A stretch of 64,000 bases of DNA from Peptococcaceae bacterium BICA1-8 (GTDB lineage Bacteria; Bacillota; Peptococcia; Peptococcales; BICA1-8). This document shows, in pieces, positions 19,958 to 42,583 of this stretch. The notes below the pieces were generated by a model, which worked only from the letters and a program-made list of their open reading frames with translations, did no database searches and was not told the DNA's origin. Where the stretch lies: assembly GCA_000802045.1 (NCBI GenBank), contig JUEF01000018.1, positions 3,823-67,822 of the forward strand, written 5' to 3'. Both the position numbers and the translations under genes were made by a program. Each line of letters starts with the position of its first letter. The first letter of the stretch is position 1.

Positions 19958-19986
19958 AAAATAACTATTGAAATGGAGGAAAAATA

Positions 19987-20619: not shown

Positions 20620-20646
20620 ACTTATGGTAAGAAAGGAGAGATTTTA

Positions 20647-22113: not shown

Positions 22114-22241
22114 GGTAAAAAGATTTAGTGGTTGCCTGCTTTTTAGGCAACCCTTAATTGCAGCTGATATTACCTGCTAGGATGCAGAGATAATCCTGAT
22201 TCTGAAGCCAATTCATAAAGTTATGCTTAGGAGGAAGTAAC

Positions 22242-24233: not shown

Positions 24234-24346
24234 TTGGGGACATTCCTCAAAAAGGAACACCTTCATTAGAAGTGTGTCCCCTTACATTCGTTGGGGACAT
24301 TCCTCAAAAAGGACCACATTCATTAGAGGTGTGTCCCCTTACCTTA
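24233..24346. repeat. Two tandem 57-bp REP-like units bounded by GGGGACA...TGTCCCC
   Basis: gttggggacattcctcaaaaagga(a/c)cac(c/a)ttcattaga(a/g)gtgtgtcccctta…, copies at 24233 and 24290. Confidence 0.75.
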
Positions 24347-24363
24347 TTAGAGGAGGAAATAAC

Positions 24364-25173: not shown

Positions 25174-25190
25174 TAGAAGGAGGGGCTAGA

Positions 25191-26612: not shown

Positions 26613-26679
26613 AAATTGAAAATTGAGAATTAAAAAAACAATTGTTCATTCTCCATTCTCAACTCTCCATTCTCCATTA
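26602..26679. repeat. Heptamer tandem repeats in inverted arrangement
   Basis: (TTGA[G/A]AA)x4 at 26602-26629, then (TCCATTC-like)x5 at 26645-26679. Confidence 0.7.
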
Positions 26680-26704
26680 TAAAATCCGGGGGGGCGGGCT
26701 AACC

Positions 26705-28534
26705 ATGAAAAATTTTAAAGTAAAGGTTTTACCTACAGGTATGGAACTGTCTGTAACCCAAGGCAATACGTTGATGAAAGCATTGATTGAAGCGGGCATT
26801 TATATAGAAGGCCCCTGTGGCGGACGTGGTACCTGTGGTAAATGTAAAATTGAAGTGGCTAGCCTTGATACTGAAATAACAAAACTTGAGGAAATAAGTA
26901 ATATTAGAGGTGAAAGTAAATTAGCCTGTCGCTTAGAGGTAGATCGGAATATGGTAGTGGTAGTGCCTCAGGCCAAAGTAGAAGAAAGCCGCAAGAGTCT
27001 GCTTCAAACAGAATTAGCAAGCTATGGGCGCCAGGGTAGGCTTGTAAAGTTTACTATTATAGTTCCGGTGCCATCTTTGGAAAAGCCGGCTTCCGATCAG
27101 GAAAGATTATGGGGCGCTTTGCATGAGGGTATTTCATATCCCATGAAGGTTGAAGCATTACGCATACTTCCGGATATGCTTCGCAAAAATAAACACATCA
27201 TTACTGTGGTTGCCCGTAAGGGTGAAGTAGTTGCACTTGAAGCAGGGGATACCACCCTTGAACTGTATGGAATTGCTTTCGACATTGGAACGACCACCCT
27301 GGTTGGTTCCCTCATTAATCTCTTGACTGGAGAGGTTTTGGCAACTCAATCGGAGGGAAATCCGCAGCGGGTCTATGGTGCAGATGTTATTTCCCGGATA
27401 TCCTATGTAGATAATGAGGATCAGGGGCTCTATACATTGCAGTCCAAGGTAATAACTGCTTTAAATGAGATAGTTTCCAAGTTGTCTGAAGATGCAGGGA
27501 TAAAAAAAGAAAGCATATATGAAATTACTATAGTAGGTAATACCACAATGACCCACTTGCTGCTTGGAGTTTGCCCAGTATATCTAGCTAGAGCTCCGTA
27601 CGTACCTGCTTTTAAAACAGTGGCAGACATTAGGGCTCAGGAATTGGGCTTAAAGATCAACCCGGAAGGTTACTGTGTTATTGTTCCCAATATTGCGGGT
27701 TTTGTAGGTGCGGATACTGTAGGGGTTATACTGGCTACGGGTTTGGACAAAAGTAGGGAGCTGAGACTGGCAATAGATATCGGGACAAATGGGGAATTGG
27801 TATTGGGTTCCGAAAAAGGGCTTTATGCTTGTTCAACTGCCGCTGGACCAGCCTTTGAAGGTGCTCAAATCAAGTTTGGGATGCGTGCAGCTCCTGGTGC
27901 AATTGAGAGAGTGGACATCACCGGGGATGTAAGGCTGCAAACCATTAATTCGTTACCTGCGGTAGGTATCTGCGGTTCGGGAGTGATCGATGCAGTGGCA
28001 GAAATGCTTAAGGCAGGTGTAATCGATTATACCGGTCGGATTACCGATCCGGAAGGGGCTATAGATCTTCCTGTTCAGATTCGGAAGCGAATTGTCCCTG
28101 GAGCCAGCGGTTTTGATTTTATTCTGGACTATTGCGAAGGGAATGGACTGGATGAAGACCTGCTAATTACCCAAAAGGATATCCGGGAATTGCAATTAGC
28201 AAAAGGTGCTATTCTGGCGGGAATTCAAGTGCTTCTAGAAGAGCTTGGTGTTCGAGAACAGGATATTACTAAGATTTTGCTAGCAGGTGCATTTGGCACC
28301 TATATCAGGAAGGAAAGCGCATGGCGAATTGGACTAGTTCCTAATTTGGACCTTGAGAGAATTCGCGCTGTAGGTAATGCCGCAGGAGTTGGTTCTCAGC
28401 TTGTCCTTATCTCCGAAGATGCAAGAGTGAGAGCCTGGAGGATAGCCGACAGCGTTAAATACATTGAACTTTCAGCACGAAAAGATTTTCAGGATAAATT
28501 TATGGAGGCTATCTACTTTCCGCAATTCAGGTAG
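26705..28534 (+). CDS. ASKHA-domain corrinoid reductive activator (RamA/RACE family) with N-terminal 2Fe-2S ferredoxin
   Basis: PCGGRGTCGKC...LAC; DIGTTT, GADVISRI, DIGTNGE, AGPAFEG, GICGSG, IRELQLAKGAI, AGAFG, GNAA; ATG at 26705. Confidence 0.92.
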   Translation: MKNFKVKVLPTGMELSVTQGNTLMKALIEAGIYIEGPCGGRGTCGKCKIEVASLDTEITKLEEISNIRGESKLACRLEVDRNMVVVVPQAKVEESRKSLLQTELASYGRQGRLVKFTIIVPVPSLEKPASDQERLWGALHEGISYPMKVEALRILPDMLRKNKHIITVVARKGEVVALEAGDTTLELYGIAFDIGTTTLVGSLINLLTGEVLATQSEGNPQRVYGADVISRISYVDNEDQGLYTLQSKVITALNEIVSKLSEDAGIKKESIYEITIVGNTTMTHLLLGVCPVYLARAPYVPAFKTVADIRAQELGLKINPEGYCVIVPNIAGFVGADTVGVILATGLDKSRELRLAIDIGTNGELVLGSEKGLYACSTAAGPAFEGAQIKFGMRAAPGAIERVDITGDVRLQTINSLPAVGICGSGVIDAVAEMLKAGVIDYTGRITDPEGAIDLPVQIRKRIVPGASGFDFILDYCEGNGLDEDLLITQKDIRELQLAKGAILAGIQVLLEELGVREQDITKILLAGAFGTYIRKESAWRIGLVPNLDLERIRAVGNAAGVGSQLVLISEDARVRAWRIADSVKYIELSARKDFQDKFMEAIYFPQFR

Positions 28535-28677
28535 GAGCGGGGGACTTTAAGCTTGCGGGGTATACCCAATAGCTAAAAAGGAGGTGAGGCAAGGCTTAAG
28601 GTGTTAGAGAGATAATTTAGTGCATAATTCCCGAAATAATATTTAGAAAATTTAAAAAATTCAAGGAGGTTGAGATT

Positions 28678-30231
28678 ATGAACAATAGCTTGTTTGGAAA
28701 GATTGACAAGAGTATTTTCGGTATTTCCGCCATCATCGCCATTGTTTTTGTGCTGTGGGGTGCGTTAATTCCAGAACAAGCAGGTAAAGCCTTTGGAGCC
28801 GCCATGGCATTTTTCACAAATAATTTTGGTTGGTCTTACATGCTGTTTGTTGCACTGTTTTTGGTTTTTTGCATTGTCGTGGCATCGAGCAAATATGGCA
28901 AAATAAAGTTGGGTAAGGATGATGATGTTCCAGAATACAGTACCTGGTCTTGGTTTGCTATGTTGTTCAGCGCTGGGATGGGTATCGGATTAGTATTCTG
29001 GAGTGTTGCTGAGCCCATGTATCATTATGCCAGTCCGCCTTTTGGCGAAGGCAATTCTCTTGAATCGGCTGGTTTGGCAATGCGTTACGTTTTCCTTCAT
29101 TGGGGCTTACACCCTTGGGCTATTTATGGGGTAGTCGGCATGGCCCTTGCATATTTCCAGTTTCGCAAACGGCTGCCTGCTCTAATTAGTTCGACACTGC
29201 ACCCCTTGCTGGGTGACGAAGGAATTAAAGGACCAATTGGTAAAGCAGTGGATATTCTGGCTGTATTTGCCACACTTTTCGGGGTAGCTACCTCCTTGGG
29301 CCTTGGTGCGATGCAGATCAACAGCGGTTTGAACTACGTCTACAATATTGTGGAATCAACTGGTGCAACTGTAGTTATTATCGGAGTAATGACAGTTTTA
29401 TTCATTATTTCGGCGGTAACGGGGATCAATAAAGGGATAAGACTCTTAAGTAACATTAACATGTATTTAGCAGGTATAATTATGCTCTTTGTTCTTTTTT
29501 TAGGACCCACCAGAGCTATTCTTAATATCTTTACTGACACTATGGGTACTTACCTCCAAAACATTGTCCAGATGAGTTTCTGGACTGACCCCTTTGGTAC
29601 CAATCCTGGTTGGGTCGGTGGCTGGACAATTTTCTACTGGGCTTGGTGGATTGCCTGGGGACCTTTTGTGGGAGCGTTTATTGCCAGGATATCCAAAGGT
29701 AGGACCGTAAGAGAGTTTATCCTGGGAGTTCTGATTGCTCCAACTCTTTTGAGCTTTATTTGGCTTTCTATTATGGGCGGAACAGCTGTTTCTCTAGAAG
29801 TATCCGGCGGGGCTGAGATAGCTAAAGCTGTTTCGGCAAACATGTCTACAGCGCTGTTTGCCTTGCTCCATAACTTACCGATGGCAGGTCTGATTTCTTC
29901 TCTAGCAATGCTCTTGATTGGTACATTCTTTATCACTTCTGCAGACTCTGCAACCTTTGTCATGGGCATGCTTACCTCCGGTGGGGACCTAGAGCCAAAA
30001 ACAGGCTTGAAGGTATTCTGGGGTGTCACTGAAGGTGCAGTAGCTGCAGTATTACTGGCAGCAGGTGGTCTTGGAGCCCTGCAAACGGCTTCTATCGTCT
30101 CTGCATTCCCATTTATGATCGTGATGATTTTAATGTGCTATTCATTAGTGAAGGCATTTAATAATGAACAGGGTATAATAGTAGCTAAAGACAAGGTAAC
30201 AAAAGCAGAATCATCTACCGTCTCAGTCTAA
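28678..30231 (+). CDS. BCCT family (betaine/carnitine/choline) transporter
   Basis: WSWFAMLFSAGMGIGLVFWSVAEP, HWGLHPWAIY, WTIFYWAWWIAWGPFVGAFIARISKGRT. Confidence 0.95.
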   Translation: MNNSLFGKIDKSIFGISAIIAIVFVLWGALIPEQAGKAFGAAMAFFTNNFGWSYMLFVALFLVFCIVVASSKYGKIKLGKDDDVPEYSTWSWFAMLFSAGMGIGLVFWSVAEPMYHYASPPFGEGNSLESAGLAMRYVFLHWGLHPWAIYGVVGMALAYFQFRKRLPALISSTLHPLLGDEGIKGPIGKAVDILAVFATLFGVATSLGLGAMQINSGLNYVYNIVESTGATVVIIGVMTVLFIISAVTGINKGIRLLSNINMYLAGIIMLFVLFLGPTRAILNIFTDTMGTYLQNIVQMSFWTDPFGTNPGWVGGWTIFYWAWWIAWGPFVGAFIARISKGRTVREFILGVLIAPTLLSFIWLSIMGGTAVSLEVSGGAEIAKAVSANMSTALFALLHNLPMAGLISSLAMLLIGTFFITSADSATFVMGMLTSGGDLEPKTGLKVFWGVTEGAVAAVLLAAGGLGALQTASIVSAFPFMIVMILMCYSLVKAFNNEQGIIVAKDKVTKAESSTVSV

Positions 30232-30246
30232 AAAAGCTTAAAACTT

Positions 30247-30277
30247 GCCGGGAGGAGGTGCTTGATTACCTCCCGGC
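30247..30277 (+). terminator. Hairpin after BCCT gene
   Basis: GCCGGGAGG...CCTCCCGGC. Confidence 0.45.
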
Positions 30278-30372
30278 CACCAAATGGTGACTTTTTTTTA
30301 AAAAGGTTTTTTACCAAGAAGTGGTGAATATGTATATTAATTCGTAATGAGCAAGCTTTTAGGATTATATTC

Positions 30373-31716
30373 TTGCCTTTTAAAAGAGGTGTTAGCGTGC
30401 AACAAGGGTTTATCAATAAGGTTAGTACACTTAAACTTCAGGAAATAACTGAAATAAATATTTTGAAACAAATTTTATTCTCATTTAGCAAAGCCACAGG
30501 CTTGCGGGCTTTTATTGTAGATTCTCAGGGTGAATTACTTGTTAAACCTGACGAAAAAGAGGAATACTGTGATTTTTGCCAACTGGTCAGGGCTACTCCA
30601 AACGGGGTTTTTAAATGCAAACGTTCTTATACCCGTGCTGGAATTGAAGCGAGTAAATACGGAAAGCCCTATATTTTCCGGTGTCATGCAGGTCTAATTG
30701 TTTGGGCGGCCCCATTACTTGTTGAGGAAGATTTTCTGGGTGCTATAGTTTGTGGGCAGGTCTTAATGTGGGAGCCAGAGGATTTTTTCTGGGAAGAAAT
30801 CGAAGATATGACCCGTGGATTGGGACTTGAGATTAAATTATTAATAGATTATGCCAAAAAGTTAGAGGTGCTTTCAGCCCAAAGAGTCCAAGCAGCTGCA
30901 GACCTCCTGTTTCTCATTGCTAATCACGTTACGAAAACGGGAATGATTACCCTCCAGCAGCGTAGAGCTATAAGTGAGCAGCAGGCAAAGTTAGGTGAAG
31001 AGATACGTGCAAGAAAAATATTAGAAGAGGCTTTTAAGAAAATTGATAACCTCTCAGTAAGGGGTTATTCACTGGAAAAAGAACAGGAGCTAGTTTGCCA
31101 GGTAAGAAAAGGTGATAAAGCAACAGCCTATAGGGTGTTAAACGAAATTTTGGCAGAGATTCTACAGCGTTATTCCGGGGATACAAAAGAAGTTAAAGCT
31201 AGGGTTTTGCAATTGTTGGTGATTATTTCTAGAGCACCGGTAGAGGGGGGAGTTGCCCTAAAAACCCTTTTACCGCTAAATCTGCAGTTTGTAGAAGAAT
31301 TTACACAACTAGATACCATTGAGGGCTTGTGCCATTGGATTGTCCATGTTACTCAAGGTTTCATTGATAGTATGGAGGAAGGGAAAGATGTACGAAATTC
31401 ACAGGTAGTTCAAAAAGCAGGTCATTATATACGCAGTAATTACCGAAAGAAAATAACAGTGGAGGATGTGGCTAAAGCTGTTTATCTTAGCCCCTGCCAT
31501 ATTAGTAAAATTTTCAAACAGGAGTTGGACTGTACGATTATTGAATTTTTGGCTAAAGTCAGAATTGAAGAGGCTAAAAAGCTTTTGCACGATCCAAAGT
31601 ACAGCGTAATTCAAGTGGCAGATGATTTGGGTTTCAAAGATCCCGGTTATTTTACCAAAGTTTTTAAACGAAACGAAGGAATTACTCCCAGCCAGTACCG
31701 GGAAAACGCATTGTAA
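30373..31716 (+). CDS. PocR ligand-binding domain AraC-family regulator
   Basis: PocR Cys pattern (YCDFC...CKRS...FRCHAGL...GAIVCGQ) plus C-terminal AraC HTH (VYLSPCHISKIFK...GFKDPGYFTKVFKRNEGITPSQYR); TTG start uncertain. Confidence 0.9.
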   Translation: MPFKRGVSVQQGFINKVSTLKLQEITEINILKQILFSFSKATGLRAFIVDSQGELLVKPDEKEEYCDFCQLVRATPNGVFKCKRSYTRAGIEASKYGKPYIFRCHAGLIVWAAPLLVEEDFLGAIVCGQVLMWEPEDFFWEEIEDMTRGLGLEIKLLIDYAKKLEVLSAQRVQAAADLLFLIANHVTKTGMITLQQRRAISEQQAKLGEEIRARKILEEAFKKIDNLSVRGYSLEKEQELVCQVRKGDKATAYRVLNEILAEILQRYSGDTKEVKARVLQLLVIISRAPVEGGVALKTLLPLNLQFVEEFTQLDTIEGLCHWIVHVTQGFIDSMEEGKDVRNSQVVQKAGHYIRSNYRKKITVEDVAKAVYLSPCHISKIFKQELDCTIIEFLAKVRIEEAKKLLHDPKYSVIQVADDLGFKDPGYFTKVFKRNEGITPSQYRENAL

Positions 31717-31750
31717 TGATTTTTTATTTGTCCTTAAGGGGGGAAAAGTT

Positions 31751-32422
31751 GTGGGAGATCTAAAACAAATTGCCGCTGCAGTGGTAGAGGGTCAGGCAGC
31801 ATTAGTCAAGATGCTAGTAGATGAAGCATTAGCTGATGGTACTACTCCATCTGACATTCTATATCATGGGTTAATAGTAGGAATGGACATTGTTAGTGCA
31901 CGTTTTAGTAATGAAGAGTTTTATGTTCCGGATGTGTTAATCTCTTCTCGAGCTGTTCATGCTGGGATGCGAGTAGTTAGGCCACTATTATTAGAAAATT
32001 CTGCACTAATAGAAGGTAAAATTGCTATTGGTACGGTAGCCGGCGATTTGCATGATATCGGCAAGAATCTGGTGATTATATTTCTAAGATCCAGGGGTTA
32101 TGAGGTGGTGGATTTGGGGATAGATGTTCATCCAGAGGAATTTGTGGAAGCTGTTTTGCTGCAAAAGCCTCAGGTACTGGGTATGTCTGCACTTTTGACT
32201 ACTACTATGCCTATTATGGCAAGTACGGTTAAACTTCTAGAACAGGCAAATATTCGGGATCAGGTAAGAGTGATTGTTGGCGGTGGCCCAGTTACCCATG
32301 ATTATAGTATGTCAATTAAAGCAGACGGATATGCGGCTGATGCCAGGAGCGCAGTCGATTTGGTAAATAAATGTATTAGAGAGTCAAAGGAGGAGTACCA
32401 TGGATCCGGTTGTATTAGATAA
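31751..32422 (+). CDS. Corrinoid (B12-binding) protein #2
   Basis: YVPDVLISSRA, GTVAGDLHDIGKNLV, SALLTTT, IVGGGP; GTG start at 31751 after a G-rich RBS. Confidence 0.92.
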   Translation: MGDLKQIAAAVVEGQAALVKMLVDEALADGTTPSDILYHGLIVGMDIVSARFSNEEFYVPDVLISSRAVHAGMRVVRPLLLENSALIEGKIAIGTVAGDLHDIGKNLVIIFLRSRGYEVVDLGIDVHPEEFVEAVLLQKPQVLGMSALLTTTMPIMASTVKLLEQANIRDQVRVIVGGGPVTHDYSMSIKADGYAADARSAVDLVNKCIRESKEEYHGSGCIR

Positions 32423-33077
32423 TATCCCGTTTAAGGTTGACTTGGAGCAGTTTCTAAAGCTAATTCGTGTAACTGATAAACCTGGCTATGCTGAAAAAGC
32501 GGTAAGATTAGTTACTGAGGCACAAAGCATTGCTAGGCCAAAGGCAATGTATAGAGAGGCTTTTATAGAAGAAAAAGGTGACGATTTTGTAATTGTTGAA
32601 GGCATCACCTTGACCAGTAGAGTTCTCAGGGTTAATTTAAACGATGCCTATAGGATATACCCCTACATTGCCACGTCCGGGGTAGAGATGGAAGAATGGT
32701 CAAAGGGAATTGAGGATATGCTGGAAAAGTTTTGGGTCGATGTCGTTAAGGAGATGGCTTTGCGTGTCGCTATACAGACTTTCCTCCAGAATTTTAAAGA
32801 AAGCACTTACCAGGGAAATACCTCTTCAATGAATCCAGGCTCCCTCCAAGATTGGCCTATTCAAGAGCAGTCGAAACTTTTCTCAATCCTAGGCAATCCT
32901 GAGTTAGTTGGGGTTAATCTTTCTCAGAGTTCTTTAATGTACCCTATTAAATCAGTTTCAGGCTTCAGGTTCCCTACTGAAGTGAATTTTGATAACTGCC
33001 AGCTCTGTTCACGGGAAAAATGCCCAGGCCGTAAAGCTCCATATGATGAAAATTTGTATGAAGAGAGATTTGCTTAG
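32400..33077 (+). CDS. Vitamin B12-dependent methionine synthase activation-domain-like protein
   Basis: SMNPGSLQDWPIQEQ, SLMYPIKSVSG, C-terminal CQLCSREKCPGRKAPY; overlaps the corrinoid gene end. Confidence 0.75.
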   Translation: MDPVVLDNIPFKVDLEQFLKLIRVTDKPGYAEKAVRLVTEAQSIARPKAMYREAFIEEKGDDFVIVEGITLTSRVLRVNLNDAYRIYPYIATSGVEMEEWSKGIEDMLEKFWVDVVKEMALRVAIQTFLQNFKESTYQGNTSSMNPGSLQDWPIQEQSKLFSILGNPELVGVNLSQSSLMYPIKSVSGFRFPTEVNFDNCQLCSREKCPGRKAPYDENLYEERFA

Positions 33078-33150
33078 TATTTATCTCACCTTTCTTTTTT
33101 ATGAACATATTCTAAAAAGAATAAATGCAAGAAAAGGAAGGTGTTTTTAT

Positions 33151-34011
33151 TTGATAGAAAATGGTGCTTGGAATGACATTATTACATTACCCTTAGGGGC
33201 CCGAAGTCGAAAACCCCGTAACAAAGGGTTGACGATGATTATTGACAAAGGATTAGGTATTGAGGAAACTAAGGATTTATTAGAAGTAGCAAGTGATTAT
33301 ATTGATTTTTTAAAGCTAGGGTTTGGTACGGCAGCCTTCTATTCTAAAGAATTATTAAAAAAGAAAATTAATCTAGTCAAAGGATTTAATGTGGAGATTT
33401 ATCCAGGCGGTACATTTTTAGAAGTAGCTTTTTTTCAGGGGAGGGCAGCTTGTTTTTTAGACAGAGCTAAAGAGTTGGGGTTTAATTTTGTTGAAATTTC
33501 TGATGGAACTATCAATTTGAACCCTAATGAAAGAAAGAAACTAATTGAAATGGCTTTAGAGCGTGGTTTGAAAGTATTGACTGAGGTAGGTAAAAAGGAT
33601 AATAAAATTAAAATATCAATGGATAATCTTAATGAACAGGTTCAGAAAGATTTAGAGTCGGGTGCATTTAAAGTTATTATGGAAGGTCGAGAAAGCGGGA
33701 AAGATATAGGACTTTATGATGAAAAGGGAAAGTTAATTAAAAATAAATACGAACAATTTACTAATAAGGTCAATGTAGAAGATATTATTTGGGAAGCACC
33801 ACTAAAAAATCAACAATTCGATTTTATAGTGAAAATGAATAGTGATGTTAATCTAGGAAATATAGCTAGTAACGAAATTCTTGCTCTCGAAGCACTGCGA
33901 ACAGGACTTCGGGGGGATACCCTTAATTTGGTAATAAGTTATGAAAGCATAAAAGAACAGGAAATGCATCCTGTACTTAGAAAGCTTGTTGCTGCCTGGA
34001 ATCTAAGATAA
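33151..34011 (+). CDS. comA: Phosphosulfolactate synthase (ComA family)
   Basis: KPRNKGLTMIIDKG, DFLKLGFGT, IYPGGTFLE, VEISDGT, TEVGKKD, MEGRESG, IIWEAP, NLGNI, EALRTGLRGDT; TTG at 33151 after AAGGAAGGTG. Confidence 0.92.
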   Translation: MIENGAWNDIITLPLGARSRKPRNKGLTMIIDKGLGIEETKDLLEVASDYIDFLKLGFGTAAFYSKELLKKKINLVKGFNVEIYPGGTFLEVAFFQGRAACFLDRAKELGFNFVEISDGTINLNPNERKKLIEMALERGLKVLTEVGKKDNKIKISMDNLNEQVQKDLESGAFKVIMEGRESGKDIGLYDEKGKLIKNKYEQFTNKVNVEDIIWEAPLKNQQFDFIVKMNSDVNLGNIASNEILALEALRTGLRGDTLNLVISYESIKEQEMHPVLRKLVAAWNLR

Positions 34012-34028
34012 CAAGTAGGCTCTGCCTT

Positions 34029-34769
34029 TTAATAAGAAGGGTAGAGCCAAATTTTATTTTGAGTATATTCAGGAATTATTTCTGTTATATTTTCTAAAGC
34101 ACAGTGTTTTATATCTTCCATTTTTTCTAAACTTTGCAGACGCAGACCATTACGTCCCATTAAGATAGTTTCCAGGGTTTTTCCTTGATAGTTTTGATAA
34201 CTACCTAAGGCAAGATGTCCGTAGTCGTTTAGAGTAAAATTATTAATATTCTTTAATTCAGCTATTATTTTACCTGCTGCTAAAGTGTCTTCTAGAGAAG
34301 GGGTACCTAAAGTTCCTGCACATACTATAGTTATATTTCTGTTGAAGTCGTCAAGCTTTCTTGCTACAGCATTACAGTTAGCAAAGGAAGCAACAAAAAC
34401 ATTATCCGCTTTCTCTACTTTTTTCAGGGCATTAGTACCGTTTGAAGTAGTAAGAATAATGGTTTTCTTTTCTACTTTAGATTTATTGTATTCCAGAGGA
34501 GAATTACCAAAATCAAAGCCTTTGATTATTTGTGAGTTTCTTTCTCCGCCTAATAAAAAATCAGGGTGCTTTTCTTTTAATTCCCAAGCTAAGGTTATTT
34601 CAGTGACCGGTAAAACTTCATTAGCACCATTACCTAACGCGCTGATAATAGTATTTGAAGCACGAAATACATCTATAACTACAGAGATAGAGTTTTTAAT
34701 TTCTGCTTCAATAACACTTTGCCACATTGGGTAAACATAAAGATTATTAATAAAAATCAATCCTTCCAT
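34029..34769 (-). CDS. comB: 2-phosphosulfolactate phosphatase (ComB family)
   Basis: VVIDVFRAS, LGGER, FDFGNSP, LTTSNGT, IVCAG, EDTLAAG. Confidence 0.9.
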   Translation of the reverse strand: MEGLIFINNLYVYPMWQSVIEAEIKNSISVVIDVFRASNTIISALGNGANEVLPVTEITLAWELKEKHPDFLLGGERNSQIIKGFDFGNSPLEYNKSKVEKKTIILTTSNGTNALKKVEKADNVFVASFANCNAVARKLDDFNRNITIVCAGTLGTPSLEDTLAAGKIIAELKNINNFTLNDYGHLALGSYQNYQGKTLETILMGRNGLRLQSLEKMEDIKHCALENITEIIPEYTQNKIWLYPSY

Positions 34770-34941
34770 TTATATTTAGCATTTATGAGTGTAACCATGA
34801 ATTGGTATATAAAACTTTAAAAAAAAAGGAGAATAATTTCCCAGAAATTTTTTAATAAAATTTTAATTATGCTTTTATTTAACAATATATTATTATAAAT
34901 GTACAAACCTTAGTAATTAATTTTTTAAAAGGAGGTAAATT

Positions 34942-35133
34942 ATGTTTGGATTCTTGCCTAACATAGGCATAGCGGAAATTTCTCTTATTCTTGTTTTGGC
35001 ACTGATTATTTTTGGTCCTGGTAAACTACCTGAAGTGGGAAAGGCATTAGGTAAGAGTATAAATCAGTTTATGGCAGCAGTTAAAACGACTGAGAATAAT
35101 ATAAATGAGGAAGTTGAAAAAATTGAGAAATAA
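34942..35133 (+). CDS. tatA: Twin-arginine translocase subunit TatA
   Basis: IGIAEISLILVLALIIFGPGKLPEVGKALGKSINQF. Confidence 0.92.
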   Translation: MFGFLPNIGIAEISLILVLALIIFGPGKLPEVGKALGKSINQFMAAVKTTENNINEEVEKIEK

Positions 35134-35189
35134 TTAGTATAGGTTGGATACTTTAAGGTGTTCAACCTCTCTTTTTGAGGCTATAGGAG

Positions 35190-36389
35190 GTGTGTAGGCT
35201 GTTTGGAGAAAGAATTAATAGTAAAATATTTAGAACAATCCAAGTAGCTGTGATTATTACAGTTTTTGCAGCTTTAAGCTACTACTTATTTTTTACCCAA
35301 AAAAGTGATATTGAAAAAGTAGTTAAGGATGTAATTCCCCAAGCAGAGAAAGTTGTGGTAGTTAATAAAGAGCCATTAATTTATGAAGGTATAAACAATG
35401 ATACTACTGTCGGATATGCAGTTTTAGATAAAGCGACAGGATATCAATCAAATATAAAAATTATGACTGGCGTTAACACCGAGGGAATTATAACTGGAGT
35501 CTATGTAGTTGAACAGCAAGAAACTCCGGCTTTTTTCCGGCAATTAGTCGAAAACGATTTTTTTGAACAATTCCTAGGAAGAGAAATTCAAAGGGGTTTC
35601 TCAGAGGGAAATATTGATGTAATCGGTGGAGCAACTATCTCCTCTTCTGCTGTAATTAAAGCAGTAAATTCGGCGACAAATTATGCAGGGAAAAATTATT
35701 TAGAGTTACCAATGCCCAAATTAGCTCTTAACATTTTCTTTGGCTTAAAAGAGATATTCATCGCCTTGCTTATACTCATTGCAGTTTATGCAACTTATTC
35801 CCCTAAGGCTAAATTAAGAACATTTTGCCTGATTTTTTCAATTTTTGTTTTAGGCTTTTTCTATAAAGCTTTTATTACTAATGGAGCGTTAGCATTATTA
35901 CTAACAGCATATTTTCCAAATCCATTGGAAAATATCTCTTGGTACTTTTTAGTGGGAGGAGCATTCCTTTTAATTCTATTTACAGGCAAGAATATTTTCT
36001 GTTTTTGGATTTGTCCTTTTGGTTCAGTTCAGGAATTATTAGCCAAAGTAGGAGGCATGAGTTACATACCTGGTAAAAGATATGATAAATTAACTAAATA
36101 CATACCCGGTTTTTTCTTGTGGTTATCATTAGTTTTTGCTTTTCTATCCGGAAATCCCGCTGCTGCCAGCTATGAACCATTTGCTGTATTATTTAGTCAA
36201 ATGGGTTCATACATCCAGTGGATATTATTACTCGTTGTTCTTTTGGCATCTTTATTTATTTTTCGCTTTTGGTGCAATTATTTTTGCCCGGTGGGTTTTA
36301 CTTTAAATTTATGGGCTAAACTGCGTAGAAGGGGAGTAGATTTATGGAGAAAAAAAGTGAGAAAGATCAAAGAGACTATATCTTCGTAG
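35190..36389 (+). CDS. RdhC/PceC (NosR/NirI-like) FMN-binding membrane protein with 4Fe-4S motifs
   Basis: Extracytoplasmic FMN-bind domain (QETPAFF...IDVIGGATISS), multiple TM helices, two CX3CP motifs (CFWICPFG, WCNYFCPVG); start uncertain. Confidence 0.85.
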   Translation: MCRLFGERINSKIFRTIQVAVIITVFAALSYYLFFTQKSDIEKVVKDVIPQAEKVVVVNKEPLIYEGINNDTTVGYAVLDKATGYQSNIKIMTGVNTEGIITGVYVVEQQETPAFFRQLVENDFFEQFLGREIQRGFSEGNIDVIGGATISSSAVIKAVNSATNYAGKNYLELPMPKLALNIFFGLKEIFIALLILIAVYATYSPKAKLRTFCLIFSIFVLGFFYKAFITNGALALLLTAYFPNPLENISWYFLVGGAFLLILFTGKNIFCFWICPFGSVQELLAKVGGMSYIPGKRYDKLTKYIPGFFLWLSLVFAFLSGNPAAASYEPFAVLFSQMGSYIQWILLLVVLLASLFIFRFWCNYFCPVGFTLNLWAKLRRRGVDLWRKKVRKIKETISS

Positions 36390-36503
36390 TATTGTTATTA
36401 ATTACAGTAGTATTGGTCAGTTTAGTAATTATTGAGAATGCAGGATTAATTTAAAATTGTTTTACTAGACTATAAGCCTTAAAAAATAATACTGATATTA
36501 GAG

Positions 36504-36527
36504 CTCACCTGTTTTTTGCAAGGTGAG
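36504..36527 (+). terminator. Terminator between rdhC and cytochrome gene
   Basis: CTCACCT...AGGTGAG followed by TTTTT. Confidence 0.5.
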
Positions 36528-36652
36528 TTTTTATATTATTTTTATGTTTTTACTATCCCCGTTTACAACTTTTTAATCAATAATTTGTTACAGTGTTATA
36601 TAGAAACAAATCTCAATCAAAAATTATAAAGAATAGGAGGGGTGTAATTTAA

Positions 36653-37156
36653 TTGAAAGCTGTTCATAAAGCTCTAATCTTTATTATAGTCATAATTTTA
36701 GGGCAATTAGTTGTGTCTGCTTGTTCTAGTTCAGCCCCTGAGCAACAAATAAGACAAGAACCATCACCGTCTTCTATAGAAAGGGAAGAGAAAGAAGAAA
36801 CTAAGCTAGAAAAGGAAGAATTAACCTTAACAATAAGCCAGGTTAACGAACAATTAATAAGCTCTTCATTTTTAGATAGTGCTCATATCACCAATGAAGT
36901 AGGTTGTAATGATTGTCATTACAACTTAGAAGAAGGCAAGCCTGTAACCTTGCCAGAAGATCAAACTTGTTTAGATTGTCACGGTAGCTATAATGATCTA
37001 GCAGATTTCTTAAAAGATAAAGAACAGTGGAAAAATTATAATCCCCATTTTGCCCACGAGAGAGATGATTGTATAACATGTCATAAGGCTCATCAGCCCT
37101 TTGAATTAACATGTTCTAGCTGCCATTCTGTAAGGGCGCCGGAAAGGTTTAGATAA
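36653..37156 (+). CDS. Tetraheme cytochrome c lipoprotein (cytochrome c3 / Fcc3 heme-domain-like)
   Basis: Lipobox LVVSAC; four CxxCH motifs: CNDCH, CLDCH, CITCH, CSSCH, with NPHFAH between hemes 2 and 3; RBS AGGAGG. Confidence 0.9.
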   Translation: MKAVHKALIFIIVIILGQLVVSACSSSAPEQQIRQEPSPSSIEREEKEETKLEKEELTLTISQVNEQLISSSFLDSAHITNEVGCNDCHYNLEEGKPVTLPEDQTCLDCHGSYNDLADFLKDKEQWKNYNPHFAHERDDCITCHKAHQPFELTCSSCHSVRAPERFR

Positions 37157-37194
37157 GGTAAAATAATAAAAAATAGTCTAAGAGGAGGGACAGT

Positions 37195-38604
37195 ATGCCT
37201 GAACAATTAACCCGTAGGCAAATGATTAAAGCTTTAGGCTTAGCAGGAGCTGGAGTAAGCCTAGCGGCAGTAAGCGGTGGAAACCCTTTAAATGCTGCAA
37301 GTGAAGCAATAGCAGATACTAAAGCCCAGCCCGTACCACGCCGTTATTGGTGGGTAAAAAATGTAGACAAAATAACAATGGAAGTGGATTGGAAAAACTA
37401 CAAAAGGTTTAGTGAATGGAAGACTACTAGAGGGAGCTTAAAAGAGTACCGTGGGAATGCAGAAGATGCTAAATATTTGAAGCTGCAAAAAGATAACCTT
37501 TTGAAATGGGAGCTAGAAAATGTTCCCGGGTATACAACAAAGGATACGGCTTTAAAAAATGCCGTAGGTTATGGACGTCCACCTTTCCAATTTATGGGTC
37601 CACAGACGGTGTCTACTCCACAGGATAGGGGAGTCCCTATTTATGAAGGATCTCCTGAAGAAAGTTCCAGGATAATAACTGCTGCCTTAAGACATATGGG
37701 AGCAGCAACTGTTGGTTTTGTACAACTTGAACCTGATTCAACCCGTAAGCTTATCTATGCAGAGGAACCGGCACCTAGTAAAAAGCCAATTTTCTTTGAA
37801 AATGTTGATGTCGGTTATGAGGATGAGAAGAAGCTGGTAGTACCTGATAAAGCCCGCTGGATAATAGTTTTTACTATTCAAATGTCAACGGAGACTATGA
37901 AATATGGCCCTACCCAGTTAGGCTCTCTGACTACGGCACTAACATATACTAGAATGTGGACAATTGTTTCCCAGCTCCATGAATTTTTACGGGGATTAGG
38001 CTATCATTCTTATGGTCCCAGTCAGTTTAACGGTTTTTCAATTAACCCGGCTTTGGCTACCTTGGCAGGCTTAGGTGAGATGTCCAGGTTAAATCGGATA
38101 ATTACTCCTGAGTATGGCCCTATGGTCAGAGCAGTTTCAATTGCAACAGATCTACCCCTTGCTCCAACAAAACCTATTAGCTTTGGAGTAATGGATTTCT
38201 GTAAAGATTGTAAGACCTGTGCGGAGATTTGTCCATCAGGTGCCTTAAGTATGGACAGAGAACCATCCTGGGAGGGTAAAGGTCCCTGGAATAACGGTGG
38301 AGCCCATAAAGCTTGGTACGAAGACTCTGTGAAATGTAGAAATTACTGGAATACCTGTGGAACCAACTGCGGAACCTGTTTTTCTTCTTGTCCTTATGCT
38401 GTTGATGATGAAGCCAGTATGCATAAGATTATTAAAGGGACAATTGCTAGTACTACTATGTTTAATTCATTACTAGTTGCTGCTGATCGCAAGGCATTTC
38501 CGGCAACAACGGGACAGCCCATGAAAAACCCTGAAGACTGGTGGAAGGATACAAATCTGGCTGAGATGGGTATTGACACCCGTCGCGGCGGTAGAAATAT
38601 TTAA
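37195..38604 (+). CDS. rdhA: Reductive dehalogenase catalytic subunit (Tat-exported)
   Basis: Tat signal TRRQMIK; WWVK…EVDW…KRF; HMGAATVGF; LAGLGEMSRLN; FCKDCKTCAEICP and CGTNCGTCFSSCP Fe-S motifs. Confidence 0.93.
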   Translation: MPEQLTRRQMIKALGLAGAGVSLAAVSGGNPLNAASEAIADTKAQPVPRRYWWVKNVDKITMEVDWKNYKRFSEWKTTRGSLKEYRGNAEDAKYLKLQKDNLLKWELENVPGYTTKDTALKNAVGYGRPPFQFMGPQTVSTPQDRGVPIYEGSPEESSRIITAALRHMGAATVGFVQLEPDSTRKLIYAEEPAPSKKPIFFENVDVGYEDEKKLVVPDKARWIIVFTIQMSTETMKYGPTQLGSLTTALTYTRMWTIVSQLHEFLRGLGYHSYGPSQFNGFSINPALATLAGLGEMSRLNRIITPEYGPMVRAVSIATDLPLAPTKPISFGVMDFCKDCKTCAEICPSGALSMDREPSWEGKGPWNNGGAHKAWYEDSVKCRNYWNTCGTNCGTCFSSCPYAVDDEASMHKIIKGTIASTTMFNSLLVAADRKAFPATTGQPMKNPEDWWKDTNLAEMGIDTRRGGRNI

Positions 38605-38608
38605 ATAA

Positions 38609-38926
38609 ATGGAGGTGGATGGATTGCTCTGGTTAATCTTAGGTATTATTATCGGTGTAGCCGCGTTTTGGGTATTTAATGCAAATAAAAGCGGGAAGAT
38701 AACTGTTAAGTGGTATCAGTGGGCATTAGGAATAATTGCCCTAGTAATGCTTTTGTTGACAGTTGAAAACTATATTAATTTTCAAAAAGAGCTTGAACCG
38801 GTGGCAGCTAATTTTATGCTGGTTGGGCTAGGAGTACCGGCCTTGTTAGCCGCATCTCTAATTTGGTTAATTCCTGTGTTTAAAAAAGGTAAAGCTAACA
38901 CAGGTGAAACAAAGGTATCAAGCTAG
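38609..38926 (+). CDS. rdhB: Reductive dehalogenase membrane anchor
   Basis: 105 aa, three TM helices, KWYQW and ELEPVAA motifs, 4 bp after rdhA. Confidence 0.88.
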   Translation: MEVDGLLWLILGIIIGVAAFWVFNANKSGKITVKWYQWALGIIALVMLLLTVENYINFQKELEPVAANFMLVGLGVPALLAASLIWLIPVFKKGKANTGETKVSS

Positions 38927-38932
38927 AACAAC

Positions 38933-38959
38933 AAGGTTGAAGGATTATCCTTCAACCTT
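38933..38959 (+). terminator. Terminator after rdhB
   Basis: AAGGTTGAAGGA-TTA-TCCTTCAACCTT. Confidence 0.65.
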
Positions 38960-39048
38960 TAATGTTCTTAATCCCATTTATATACATTTTATTTTTGGAG
39001 GAATAGAAACTTTAAAAGCCGAATATAGCATATAGGCTTTTTCAAGGG

Positions 39049-40608
39049 GTGATATTATTGTCTGCTTTGGATCAAAATGATAATATTCTTAACAGCTTCT
39101 CTGACCTATTGGTTCGTTCACCCAGTTGTAGTTGTGTTTTAAAAGACCTTTTAGAAACAGTTGTAAATAATTGGCACGCAAATATTGGCATGATTCTGAT
39201 CAAAGATCATCAAGATAATCTTCGGCCCCTAGCCTTGATAAATAAAACAAATATTGAACTTAAAATAAAATTTGCAGCTCGCGATTTTCATGAGCACTTG
39301 AGCGGTCTTGTAAATATCCAAGCATGTTTGATAACAGATAGTCAGATAGAGTTTAAAGAAGATGGGGATATGTTTATTTTCTCTTGTCCCTTATGGATAG
39401 AAAACAAAATTATTGGGATATTGTCCTTATGTGGTATGGCAGAATACTTGCCGAAAAAAGAAGATATTGCAATTCTACAGGTTATTACCAACCAGATATC
39501 ACTATCTTTAGAAAAGGAATTAGCTGTTGAAAAAAATAATACTCAACAGTATTGTTTCAATTCAGTTTTAGACAGTCTGACTGAGGGGATAGCAATAGTA
39601 AATGTGAATAAAATAATTTATTCTAACTCTTTAATTAGAAGGATGTTAAAGTGTGGGGTAAATGTAAATATAAACTTAGAGGATTTTTTTAATTGTGTAA
39701 TTAATATAAGTAAAGAGCCATTTAAAACTCAAATCTACCTTGAAACATGCAGAGTAGTTGAGAAGGAAACTTATACCTTTGAGATTGAAACTAAGGATAA
39801 TAGCTATATGAAATTTACTAAATTTCATATCCTTTCACCGGGCAAGGAACTTCTAAGCTTTGGCTTTTTAGTTAGTGATATTACTAAGCACAAAGAAGCA
39901 GATAAATTGAAAAATGATCTTATGGCAATTGTCAGCCATGAATTACGTACACCTCTTACCAGTATTAAAGGTAATGTAAGCTCATTATTGAGAAAAGATG
40001 TAATGTGGACTGATGAAATGAAGGACGATTTTTTAAACGATATCTATGATGAATGTAACAGATTAAATATGCTAATTGAGAAAATCTTAGATATCTCTAA
40101 AATAAATGCAGGGGTCTTAAAACTACAAAAAGAATTAATAAGAATTGATAAACTATTAAATAAATTTAATTTAAAGATTGTAAATAGACTTTTCCAGAGG
40201 CAGGAAATAAATTTTGACATTAATAATGGAACGGATATCTTAGAGATTGACGAAGAAAAAATACAACAGGTGTTAGTAAATCTTATCGATAACGCGGTTA
40301 AATACGGTGAAGGTGATGTAAAAATAAAAATCGGTGTAAGAAGAGAGGACGACATGGTGCTTTTTTCTGTCGCGGATAATGGACCTGGAATAGCCCAGGA
40401 TGTTTTAGATAAAATTTTCCAAAAGTTTTATCAAGTAAATAATAGTTCCCATGCTAATAACCTGGGAAGTGGATTGGGGTTAGCTATATGCAAAGGTTTT
40501 GTTCAGGCCCATGGAGGAACAATTTGGGTCGGAAGTACCCTAGGCAAAGGGAGTACCTTTTATTTTACTCTTCCTTTAAAAAAAGAAGGGGGTGAGGTAT
40601 TTGGCTAA
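39049..40608 (+). CDS. Soluble sensor histidine kinase (GAF-like + PAS-like + HisKA + HATPase)
   Basis: IVSHELRTPLTSIKG, QVLVNLIDNAVKY, DNGPGI, GSGLGLAICKGFVQAHGG; no TM segments. Confidence 0.92.
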   Translation: MILLSALDQNDNILNSFSDLLVRSPSCSCVLKDLLETVVNNWHANIGMILIKDHQDNLRPLALINKTNIELKIKFAARDFHEHLSGLVNIQACLITDSQIEFKEDGDMFIFSCPLWIENKIIGILSLCGMAEYLPKKEDIAILQVITNQISLSLEKELAVEKNNTQQYCFNSVLDSLTEGIAIVNVNKIIYSNSLIRRMLKCGVNVNINLEDFFNCVINISKEPFKTQIYLETCRVVEKETYTFEIETKDNSYMKFTKFHILSPGKELLSFGFLVSDITKHKEADKLKNDLMAIVSHELRTPLTSIKGNVSSLLRKDVMWTDEMKDDFLNDIYDECNRLNMLIEKILDISKINAGVLKLQKELIRIDKLLNKFNLKIVNRLFQRQEINFDINNGTDILEIDEEKIQQVLVNLIDNAVKYGEGDVKIKIGVRREDDMVLFSVADNGPGIAQDVLDKIFQKFYQVNNSSHANNLGSGLGLAICKGFVQAHGGTIWVGSTLGKGSTFYFTLPLKKEGGEVFG

Positions 40609-41296
40609 AAAAGTATTATTAGTAGAAGATGACGAAAAAATTATGAGGTTTATTCGAGCTAATTTAGTAGCAAGCAATTTTGAGGTAATTACTGCAAAAG
40701 ACGGCAGAGAAGCATTGGAAAAATACGAGCAGCTTTTACCTGATTTGATACTACTAGACCTTATGCTGCCAGAGATAGGCGGTTTTGATGTACTTAAAAA
40801 TATAAGAGAATATTCATCAGTTCCGGTTATTATTATCACTGCCAAAGGGAACACCTCTGATACAATTCGTGGTTTAGAATTAGGGGCAGATGATTATGTT
40901 GTAAAGCCTTTTGATATAAATGAATTATTAGCTAGAATAAATGCCGTTGTTAGAAGATGTATTAAAGAGAGGATTGATGACAGTCCCATTTTAAATACAG
41001 GTGAACTGCATATTAATTTGGCTAGCTATAAGGTGAAGGTAGGAATTAACAATATTAAACTAACACCTACTGAATTTAAACTTTTGGCAGAATTAGCAAT
41101 AAATAATGGCAAAGTAATTACCCATGAAGCCCTGCTAACTAAAATTTGGGGGCTTGAATATAGGGACGAAACCCATTATTTAAGGGTATGTGTAGCAAGA
41201 ATTAGACAGAAGTTGAAGCTAAGAGATGGAGATATAGGATTTATTCAGACAATTCCTACTGTAGGATACAAAATGCAAGAGGATACCACCTTGTAG
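40601..41296 (+). CDS. OmpR/KdpE-family response regulator
   Basis: VLLVEDD, DLILLDLMLP, GADDYVVKPF, winged helix LTPTEFKLL...YLRVCVARIRQKL; TTG at 40601. Confidence 0.93.
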   Translation: MAKKVLLVEDDEKIMRFIRANLVASNFEVITAKDGREALEKYEQLLPDLILLDLMLPEIGGFDVLKNIREYSSVPVIIITAKGNTSDTIRGLELGADDYVVKPFDINELLARINAVVRRCIKERIDDSPILNTGELHINLASYKVKVGINNIKLTPTEFKLLAELAINNGKVITHEALLTKIWGLEYRDETHYLRVCVARIRQKLKLRDGDIGFIQTIPTVGYKMQEDTTL

Positions 41297-41314
41297 TAAT
41301 TTGGGAGGATTCAG

Positions 41315-42538
41315 ATGAATATTCAGCCTGTAAATAAAACTACCGCCGAACTATATGAGGTGGAACATTCTTATAAAAGATTTAATCAAATGAATAATCT
41401 TATTATTCAAATGTACTGGAACGAGGAAATAAAAAAGCTAGAAAACAAACGACAAGAAAACCTGCAAAAGTATATAAAGGAAAAGAGGGCAGGTTATTCA
41501 CTTCTGGATTTTGCTTATTTTAATGGTCCATTAAGCTTTGTTGATAACATTAATTACGGAATAAATTTTTGTGATCAAAAAGCAAATAGTTGGTCCAGTG
41601 ATCTTGCATCTGGAAAAGTAGACTTAGATGTCTTTAGTCCCCAAGAATTAACAACGGCAATAAAAAAAGCTTCAAGTATGTATGGAGCAAGTGATGTTGG
41701 TATTGCCCCATTAGACCGCCGTTGGTTTTACTCCCATTGGTTTGATCACAATACTAAAAAGAGCTATCCAATCCATTTTTCAGATGAGGATGAAAAATAT
41801 TCCTATATAAAAGAACCTACACTTTTGGAAAATAACATAAGAGTAATACCAAAAGAGATGAAATCGGTAATAGTTTTTATTTTTGAGATGAGTAATGAAT
41901 GCTTAAAACGGTCCCCGACAATTTTGCCGTATGGGGAAGGAGTAAATGTATATTCCAAAATGAGCTTGCTTACCATGAACATTGCCGGTTTTATAAGAAC
42001 ATTAGGATATAATGCTATACCAAGTATAAACTGTACAGCTTTAAATATACCCTTAGCAATAGACGCCGGATTAGGGCAACTAGGGCGTAATGGAAAACTT
42101 ATAAATCCCCATTTAGGTTCACGAATAAGGATTGCAAAGGTTATTACCGATATGCCCTTAATACATGATAAGCCCATTAATTTTGGTGTTACAGAATTTT
42201 GTGATGCTTGTCGAAAGTGTGCGAGGGAGTGTCCAGTTGGTGCAATTCCCAGCGGTACTAGAACTAGACAGCCAGTTGATGAACTGGGTAATGCTCATTA
42301 TTTAAGATGGCCAGTTAATCATAAGAAGTGTTTTGAATATTGGAGTGAATGTGGGACAAATTGTAATATCTGCTTATATGTATGTTCTTATAACCGGGGG
42401 TATAAGTGGACAAAAGGTATTTTAAATGCCACTCATAGAGATAATTCTCTTATTGATACCCTATTAGATGGCCTTGAAGATGACTATGGATTAGAATTAA
42501 TAAATAAAGACTCTGATGATTTTTGGTTTAAGGGATAA
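41315..42538 (+). CDS. rdhA: Second reductive dehalogenase-like corrinoid/Fe-S protein lacking a Tat signal
   Basis: YKRFNQ, IKKASSMYGASDVGIAPLDRRWFYSHW, LGYNAIPS, PLAIDAGLGQLGRNG, FCDACRKCARECP, CGTNCNICLYVC; no RR motif; RBS GGAGG directly after the regulator stop. Confidence 0.85.
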   Translation: MNIQPVNKTTAELYEVEHSYKRFNQMNNLIIQMYWNEEIKKLENKRQENLQKYIKEKRAGYSLLDFAYFNGPLSFVDNINYGINFCDQKANSWSSDLASGKVDLDVFSPQELTTAIKKASSMYGASDVGIAPLDRRWFYSHWFDHNTKKSYPIHFSDEDEKYSYIKEPTLLENNIRVIPKEMKSVIVFIFEMSNECLKRSPTILPYGEGVNVYSKMSLLTMNIAGFIRTLGYNAIPSINCTALNIPLAIDAGLGQLGRNGKLINPHLGSRIRIAKVITDMPLIHDKPINFGVTEFCDACRKCARECPVGAIPSGTRTRQPVDELGNAHYLRWPVNHKKCFEYWSECGTNCNICLYVCSYNRGYKWTKGILNATHRDNSLIDTLLDGLEDDYGLELINKDSDDFWFKG

Positions 42539-42552
42539 AATTAGGATAAAAA

Positions 42553-42570
42553 ATCGCCCAACGGGGCGAT
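42553..42570. terminator. Bidirectional terminator between rdhA2 and FAH gene
   Basis: ATCGCCC-AACG-GGGCGAT flanked by A and T tracts. Confidence 0.6.
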
Positions 42571-42583
42571 CTTTTATTATTGG

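Follow-up and report, generated by a model that had tools for sequence, protein, structure and literature searches.

A Tat-less reductive dehalogenase homolog encoded with a soluble two-component system in Peptococcaceae bacterium BICA1-8: a possible link between organohalide turnover and signal perception

INTRODUCTION

What is a reductive dehalogenase homolog doing in an operon that encodes a two-component system (TCS)? The question is raised by a 64,000-nucleotide stretch of Peptococcaceae bacterium BICA1-8 (assembly GCA_000802045.1, contig JUEF01000018.1, positions 3,823 to 67,822), a genome from a rock-porewater metagenome; the whole stretch is referred to here as the window. At 39049..42538, a soluble histidine kinase (HK), an OmpR/PhoB-type response regulator (RR), and RdhA2, a reductive dehalogenase (RdhA) homolog lacking a twin-arginine translocation (Tat) signal, are encoded one after another, next to an operon for a respiratory-type enzyme (RdhA1) and its membrane anchor (RdhB). 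Comparison of this three-gene cassette with its relatives makes us fairly confident that, as judged from sequence, it regulates the respiratory rdh genes beside it and that RdhA2 is an RdhA that stays in the cytoplasm and is competent for catalysis. How RdhA2 may bear on the signal is the subject of the argument that follows.

To our knowledge, substrate sensing in organohalide-respiring bacteria is largely unexplained beyond CprK, and no kinase has a known ligand. According to Esken et al. 2020 (PMC7755780), Dehalococcoidia are the only group in which TCS sensors at rdh loci are known to be cytoplasmic, and a few Desulfitobacterium species have TCS genes adjoining unstudied rdh genes (citing Kruse 2017). 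We found no paper proposing a regulatory role for an RdhA, and the gene arrangement in Desulfitobacterium may have been noted earlier.

RESULTS

Anatomy and conservation of the cassette

All three genes lie on the forward strand: the HK (519 amino acids [aa]; 39049..40608), with GAF, PAS, HisKA, and HATPase domains recognized from Pfam and NCBIfam matches, a structural model, and an 11-ortholog alignment; the RR (40601..41296; PF00072 Response_reg and PF00486 Trans_reg_C); and RdhA2 (407 aa; 41315..42538). The RR most likely starts at TTG 40601, to judge from the Shine-Dalgarno sequence GAAGGGGG 8 nt upstream, which gives an 8-bp overlap with the HK gene; the alternative GTG 40592, the earliest possible start, would make the overlap 17 bp. 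The gap between the RR gene and RdhA2 is 18 bp, and RdhA2 shares a bidirectional intrinsic terminator (hairpin plus T-tract; 42546..42577) with a convergent gene for an FAA hydrolase. The original prediction, made from the window alone, had described three tightly coupled genes that end in a terminator with no rdhB behind them, and this description holds. It did not mention a second hairpin, with a 12-bp stem (38933..38959, forward strand; terminator-like scan), that separates rdhA1-rdhB from the kinase operon. The window has a HisKA/HATPase kinase and an OmpR-type regulator encoded beside rdhAB, the arrangement expected of two-component control.

The order HK-RR-RdhA2 is retained in 13 of 13 loci, with an RR-RdhA2 spacing of −8 to +72 bp. 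These loci are all members of the RdhA2 subclade (at least ~49% identity) with readable context, the window included. They come from five metagenome contigs, Desulfitobacterium sp. PCE1, Desulfitobacterium sp. THU1, a Desulfitobacterium metagenome-assembled genome, Desulfitobacterium dehalogenans ATCC 51507, Desulfuribacillus alkaliarsenatis, Desulfitibacter alkalitolerans, and Calidifontibacillus oryziterrae in addition to the window; when the RdhA2 alignment was used to look for related loci, only 18 were returned, and known members were missing from them. By maximum likelihood, the TCS-linked RdhA2s group into a single clade on a long stem (97 in the Shimodaira-Hasegawa-like approximate likelihood ratio test), apart from the RdhA1s and from other cytosolic clades, and no two-component genes were found near the more distant Tat-less homologs (those of Chloroflexota and Gracilibacter and a second copy in the source genome on contig C87). 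Both checks proposed with the original prediction, the phylogeny of RdhA2 and the neighborhood of its orthologs, therefore bear out the association with HK and RR. The HK, RR, and RdhA2 trees agree in their supported groupings, which indicates that the three genes have been inherited as a unit. Two loci differ in detail. In the closest metagenomic relative (L011, 2522-4084), the kinase is split into two open reading frames (ORFs) of 108 and 406 aa, which reflects a frameshift, loss of function as a pseudogene, or a mistake in assembly; in a subsurface metagenome (L046, 9112-9903), a second OmpR-type regulator gene, its product 59% identical to the window's RR, lies directly downstream of RdhA2.

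A Tat-RdhA/RdhB operon lies within a few kilobases of 11 of the 13 cassettes, in varying position and orientation. RdhA1 is 71 to 88% identical to the RdhA beside seven other cassettes; the partner RdhAs as a whole belong to two unrelated clades, with either that identity to RdhA1 or one of 36 to 38%.

A direct-repeat box as candidate operator of the respiratory genes

The respiratory operon cytC-rdhA1-rdhB is preceded by a direct repeat of 11 bp, GTTTTTATATTATTTTTATGTT (36527..36548, forward strand), which is a candidate site for the RR. The box has the consensus ATTTTTATATAATTTTTATAT and the layout ATTTTTATAT-A-ATTTTTATAT. When a leave-one-out position weight matrix (PWM) was run over both strands of each whole locus, the box ranked first in eight of eight loci and was always upstream of cytC/rdhA1; in the source genome, 36527-36548 is the top PWM match in all 3.98 Mb. 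A weaker direct-repeat copy, TTTTTAATAAAATTTTAATTAT (34849..34870, forward strand; PWM score, 15.6 to 15.9), lies upstream of tatA-rdhC and is the second-best match in the 11-kb region, and the PWM scan found no strong copy upstream of the kinase operon. The recognition helix of the RR (ETHYLRVC[VI]AR[IL]R) is nearly invariant across 12 loci, which fits a common DNA target. From these patterns, we infer that the RR binds the direct-repeat box. The remaining genome-wide PWM matches fall within ORFs or ahead of unrelated genes (carB-like, methyl-accepting chemotaxis protein) and were taken as chance matches to AT-rich sequence.

A good copy of the box is also found in Calidifontibacillus oryziterrae (L015, 9293-9700), 78 bp downstream of RdhA2; tandem repeats with a 20-bp unit come next and extend over ~300 bp. 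There is no rdhA-rdhB operon at this copy, and a gene for a CRP/FNR-type regulator lies further on. The box and tandem repeats look like what was left behind when an rdhAB operon disappeared.

RdhA2 as a probable cytoplasmic reductive dehalogenase

By sequence, RdhA2 is a true RdhA and neither a QueG protein nor a pseudogene. It scores 210.3 bits against TIGR02486 (curated cutoff, 160.35), 20.5 against PF13486, below the cutoff of 24.3, and 51 bits against the QueG model TIGR00276, for which the cutoff is 200; among proteins of solved structure, its best match is respiratory PceA from Sulfurospirillum multivorans (E value, 1.5e-58). Residues Tyr213, Asn239, and Arg272 align with the catalytic Tyr246, Asn272, and Arg305 of PceA and are invariant throughout the clade. 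The cysteines of both Fe-S motifs (C296/C299/C302/C306-P307 and C339/C350/C353/C357) are invariant in 18 orthologs. An AlphaFold2 (AF2) model with a mean predicted local distance difference test score (pLDDT) of 81.9 and a predicted template modeling score of 0.87 has template modeling scores (TM-scores) of 0.73 to PceA, 0.63 to NpRdhA, and 0.35 to QueG, so that the corrinoid-binding RdhA fold is predicted to be present. The claim in the original prediction that the corrinoid-binding core and both Fe-S motifs are kept is supported by the eight cysteines and by the model. QueG identity was ruled out by the TIGR00276 score and the low TM-score to QueG.

The TCS-linked clade also has a clade-specific cysteine, Cys86, at a position that is a proline in 86% of other cytosolic RdhAs.

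RdhA2 has no twin-arginine motif and starts at the same position in all 13 orthologs. Its Y20-KRF aligns with Y69-KRF of RdhA1, from which it differs widely (31% identity), and with residue ~5 of the Desulfitobacterium hafniense PceA chain; that is, it begins where the mature enzymes begin, as had been noticed from the window alone. A longer N terminus is impossible because an in-frame TAA lies five codons upstream of the ATG, which confirms that there is no upstream room for a lost signal. Recent truncation of a Tat signal was ruled out, since the signal is missing in all orthologs and in 120 of the 120 best homologs. With both a Tat signal and an adjacent rdhB missing, RdhA2 is not a prototypical respiratory RdhA. 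At only 407 aa, it is also not of the self-sufficient catabolic NpRdhA/BhbA type (~700 aa), and the alignment of NpRdhA to RdhA2 is limited to NpRdhA core residues 423-572.

Among three Desulfitobacterium loci, dN/dS ratios are 0.09 to 0.11 for RdhA2, 0.07 to 0.11 for the regulator, 0.13 to 0.18 for the kinase, and 0.04 to 0.05 for RdhA1. The value for RdhA2 thus resembles that of the regulator and is about twice that of RdhA1, and RdhA2 has evolved two to five times faster than the RdhA1 of the same genomes. A dN/dS of ~0.1 indicates that RdhA2 is clearly under purifying selection and functional; together with the intact catalytic residues, it ruled out a pseudogene. The two identities that would have undone the original prediction, a QueG-like protein and a degenerate gene, were thus both excluded.

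The kinase sensor

The HK matches HisKA and HATPase_c, with a weak match to GAF, and has no transmembrane-like segment (maximum 19-residue Kyte-Doolittle mean of 1.40 versus 2.52 for RdhB), in agreement with its original description. Since the HK is soluble, its signal must be cytoplasmic. An AF2 model of residues 1-290 (pLDDT, 80.8) shows a GAF domain followed by a long helix and then a PAS domain. A conserved motif, RSPSCSCVL, which contains CxC (residues 23-31; window 39115-39135), precedes the first GAF helix; a scan with the back-translated pattern found only two loci, both of Desulfitobacterium and already known. A redox or metal link between this motif and Cys86 of RdhA2 is pure speculation.

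A profile of the sensor region (residues 1-290) had ~10 end-to-end matches among 1.84 billion representative proteins. At least seven of the nine that were not the query itself are kinases of cassette loci, and the matches below them are giant multi-GAF proteins matched in fragments. Scans of genomes and metagenome contigs for the sensor homolog P0130 found only unrelated kinase cores. On these searches, the sensor family appears to be almost confined to the cassette. The best length-matched fold neighbors of the modeled sensor are the N-terminal part of Escherichia coli DhaR crystallized with DhaK and DhaL (TM-scores, 0.44 to 0.47), followed by the soluble GAF-PAS kinase sensor 2YKF and phytochromes. 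DhaR and RedR2 are GAF-PAS regulators under the control of “trigger enzymes” (PMC10084136).

DISCUSSION

The role of RdhA2

The explanation that we tentatively favor on sequence grounds is that the cassette controls the respiratory rdh genes next to it, with RdhA2 as a dehalogenase of the cytoplasm that is coupled to perception of the signal. The soluble kinase would read a cytoplasmic signal through its GAF-PAS sensor and phosphorylate the OmpR-type regulator, which would bind the direct repeat ATTTTTATATAATTTTTATAT upstream of tatA-rdhC and cytC-rdhA1-rdhB and activate both. RdhA2 would remain in the cytoplasm, produced alongside HK and RR and not with the induced regulon, and its most likely job would be to couple organohalide turnover to the signal. 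It might touch the GAF-PAS sensor, as DhaK and DhaL act on DhaR, with substrate or redox state governing the contact, or it might make or consume a molecule that the kinase senses. We infer both that RdhA2 is active and that it affects kinase signaling. Three observations speak for a sensory role: RdhA2 is strictly linked, in both directions, with a dedicated sensor family, its gene is in the operon of the regulators and not behind the box, and the respiratory partner RdhA is exchangeable.

Several observations weigh against this explanation. RdhA2 retains all of the features that an ordinary enzyme needs. Six of the cassettes closely follow rdhA1-rdhB on the downstream side, with a weak terminator between them, so that read-through could make RdhA2 inducible like such an enzyme. 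The sequence of the box is very AT-rich, and only co-occurrence ties it to the RR. GAF-PAS tandems are common, and the similarity to DhaR is modest (~12% identity); the GAF and PAS domains of the kinase could themselves be where an organohalide binds, in which case no co-sensor would be needed. Finally, no respiratory rdh operon lies within 8 kb of two of the cassettes (L015 and L047), and in one of these genomes, that of Calidifontibacillus (L015), the cassette RdhA2 is the only RdhA above the cutoff.

The strongest alternative is quite possible on the same sequences: RdhA2 may be an ordinary cytoplasmic dehalogenase that detoxifies or scavenges leaked halogenated compounds, with no signaling role, and a co-expressed or autoregulated target of the TCS. 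Conservation covers its full catalytic set and the two Fe-S motifs, other short Tat-less family members occur in catabolic contexts without a TCS (PMC12219181), and in the solitary Calidifontibacillus cassette RdhA2 is the only obvious output of the TCS. The detoxifying enzyme of the original prediction is nearly as likely as the sensory partner of the kinase that it also proposed. However, the box is strong upstream of every neighboring respiratory operon but not upstream of the cassette. The box remnant and repeats in Calidifontibacillus suggest that an rdhAB operon was lost there and that a stand-alone cassette is not the ancestral state. No electron-donor gene is conserved beside RdhA2, and the strict two-way tie to a dedicated sensor family exceeds what co-regulation needs.

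The favored coupling of RdhA2 to perception has a more specific form in which RdhA2 is a receptor subunit of the kinase, a corrinoid/Fe-S trigger enzyme docked on the GAF-PAS module that reports organohalide binding or turnover or the redox state of cobalt. This form is conceivable but doubtful. It comes closest to the sensory partner first proposed for this locus, of which the regulatory setting is supported by the confined sensor family and by the box at the respiratory operons.

A role in cofactor status or handling, with RdhA2 reporting corrinoid or redox status to the kinase or holding corrinoid for, and helping the maturation of, RdhA1 before Tat export, seems improbable. The predicted corrinoid-binding fold is kept, the conserved CxC of the HK and the clade-specific Cys86 are compatible with redox chemistry, and the Desulfuribacillus cassette abuts cbiMQO and cobalamin biosynthesis genes, with a copy of the box in between. 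However, this cobalamin linkage occurs at one locus only, cofactor handling would not call for invariance of the catalytic Tyr, Arg, and Asn, and the gene is in the TCS operon and not in the rdhA1 operon, the usual site of maturation factors such as RdhT. Least credible of all is the proposal, also among the original options, that RdhA2 is a signal-less “hitchhiker” exported while bound to Tat-bearing RdhA1 and working outside the membrane: PceA-type RdhAs are dimers, RdhA2 is closer to respiratory PceA than to catabolic NpRdhA, and most cassettes have a Tat-RdhA nearby, but RdhA1 and RdhA2 share less than a third of their residues, the partners fall into two unrelated clades while RdhA2 falls into one, two cassettes lack a partner (the genome around one of these has no further RdhA above the cutoff), and RdhA2 appears to be transcribed with the regulators and not with rdhA1-rdhB.

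Tat-less RdhAs and the other RdhAs of the genome

The original prediction took Tat-less RdhAs to be usually larger than RdhA2 or fused to reductase domains, and this has to be revised. All of the 120 best homologs of RdhA2 among 5.8 billion proteins lack a Tat motif, and they are 235 to 685 aa long, mostly ~370 to 465 aa, mainly from Chloroflexota and Bacillota; Bathyarchaeia are present among the genome matches. A “simplified cytosolic” RdhA type of ~395 aa has already been published (Han et al. 2025, PMC12219181). To judge from these sequences, short cytosolic RdhAs are a large, known class, and the Tat-less state of RdhA2 is not unusual. The longest homolog (P0108, 685 aa) has extra Fe-S and DUF regions, and no fusion of an RdhA2 homolog to a kinase or PAS domain was found among the listed homologs.

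The source genome encodes four kinds of RdhA, namely, RdhA1, RdhA2, and two others. One is a second Tat-less RdhA (C87:7423-8694), 47% identical to RdhA2, whose neighbors are AOR and transporter genes; they resemble the AOR/ThiS-like set at the Gracilibacter homolog, a likeness seen without hidden Markov model annotation. The other (C107:8069-9469) has an N-terminal transmembrane helix and is preceded by a gene for another histidine kinase. A separate QueG-like gene is found on contig C118.

The respiratory operons and their surroundings

Five genes on the forward strand make up the respiratory part of the locus. The first operon consists of tatA (63 aa; 34942..35133), identified by translation and by TatA_B_E genes in the same position in two other loci (L014 and L046), and a gene for an rdhC-like membrane protein with FMN-binding and Fer4_5 (NapH/NosR-like) domains (35190..36389; PF04205 and PF12801). 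The second operon begins with cytC, which encodes a multiheme cytochrome c3-like lipoprotein (36653..37156; PF14537, E value of 3e-13). It continues with RdhA1 (37195..38604), which has the Tat signal TRRQMIKALG and matches TIGR02486 (260 bits), PF13486, and, weakly, TAT_signal, and with the 105-aa membrane anchor RdhB (38609..38926), recognized by its hydrophobic segments and 40 to 54% identical to the products of genes in other loci that carry PF27193 VcrB. A cytC gene is found in the same position, directly upstream of the Tat-RdhA, in seven loci, including the window, L011, L013, and L044 to L046, and its product may help carry electrons to RdhA1. A cytochrome c3-like gene at this spot is unusual for Firmicute rdh clusters.

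The island itself is variable, since in a genome of the same genus (L053, G003:C36), the counterpart of window 33079-42583 (the rdh island plus comAB) is replaced by 5.1 kb of unrelated genes between syntenic flanks that are 84 to 92% identical; the replacement holds a patatin-like gene, two subtilase fragments, and small ORFs. This Bacillota genome encodes, where the island begins on its left (32989-34769), ComA (phosphosulfolactate synthase) and, from a convergent gene, ComB (2-phosphosulfolactate phosphatase), both missing at the congener site. Further left (18476-33077) is a corrinoid-dependent methyltransferase cluster with a G+C content of 0.42 to 0.44, above that of its surroundings. 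It encodes three MttB-family methyltransferases, a hydantoinase-like protein, the corrinoid activase RACo, a BCCT transporter, a PocR/AraC regulator, a B12-binding corrinoid protein, and a protein with a MetH activation-like domain, and it looks like a quaternary-amine (glycine-betaine-type) demethylation system.

Significance

The cassette offers a defined, conserved system, with a predicted operator sequence, for studying organohalide sensing, and it occurs in strains that are cultured and partly studied (Desulfitobacterium dehalogenans, strain PCE1, and Desulfuribacillus alkaliarsenatis). It shows that soluble two-component sensors at rdh loci also occur outside Dehalococcoidia, and it splits the growing class of “cytosolic RdhAs,” with at least one lineage in a probable regulatory context. 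If RdhA2 is indeed a receptor subunit, it would be the first B12-based organohalide chemoreceptor and the first RdhA with a regulatory function; it could then also be put to use in the specific biosensing of halogenated pollutants.

Comparison with known systems

Two regulatory systems invite comparison with the cassette. In Sulfurospirillum, PceS/PceP (PMC7755780) places an OmpR-type regulator beside rdhAB that activates organohalide respiration operons, as the TCS beside rdhAB in the window may do; PceS, however, is a membrane kinase with seven transmembrane segments, whereas the cassette HK is soluble. The kinases of the Dehalococcoidia TCSs beside rdhAB are soluble, as in the cassette. Neither PceS/PceP nor the Dehalococcoidia TCS operons contain an RdhA paralog, and the cassette does. 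In DhaR-DhaK/DhaL and RedR2-BtdS, a GAF-PAS module is controlled by a bound catalytic enzyme subunit, and a GAF-PAS module is also predicted in the cassette HK. DhaR and RedR2 are transcription factors of the enhancer-binding type, while the cassette protein is a histidine kinase of distant sequence.

Among enzymes, the PceAs of S. multivorans (4UQU) and D. hafniense (8Q4H) share with RdhA2 the mature length, the Tyr/Asn/Arg residues, and the Fe-S motifs, with TM-scores of 0.73 and 0.71. Unlike PceA, RdhA2 has neither a Tat signal nor an RdhB partner, and its gene sits in a regulator operon; it is therefore predicted to be cytoplasmic. NpRdhA and BhbA are Tat-less, cytoplasmic corrinoid/Fe-S dehalogenases, as is predicted for RdhA2, but they are ~700 aa long, with an extra N-terminal domain and, in the BhbA type, a reductase domain, and they match RdhA2 with only an E value of 5e-23 and a TM-score of 0.63. 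The simplified cytosolic RdhAs of Chloroflexota and Desulfobacterota (PMC12219181) and the wider short Tat-less clade are, like RdhA2, ~400 aa long (39 to 47% identity) and lack a Tat signal, rdhB, a vestigial second cobalamin domain, and a fused reductase. In contrast to RdhA2, they are found in catabolic contexts (SDR, TRAP transporter, AOR, and hydrolase genes) with IclR or MarR regulators and without a TCS, whereas the TCS-linked RdhA2s form a separate clade that so far includes only Bacillota.

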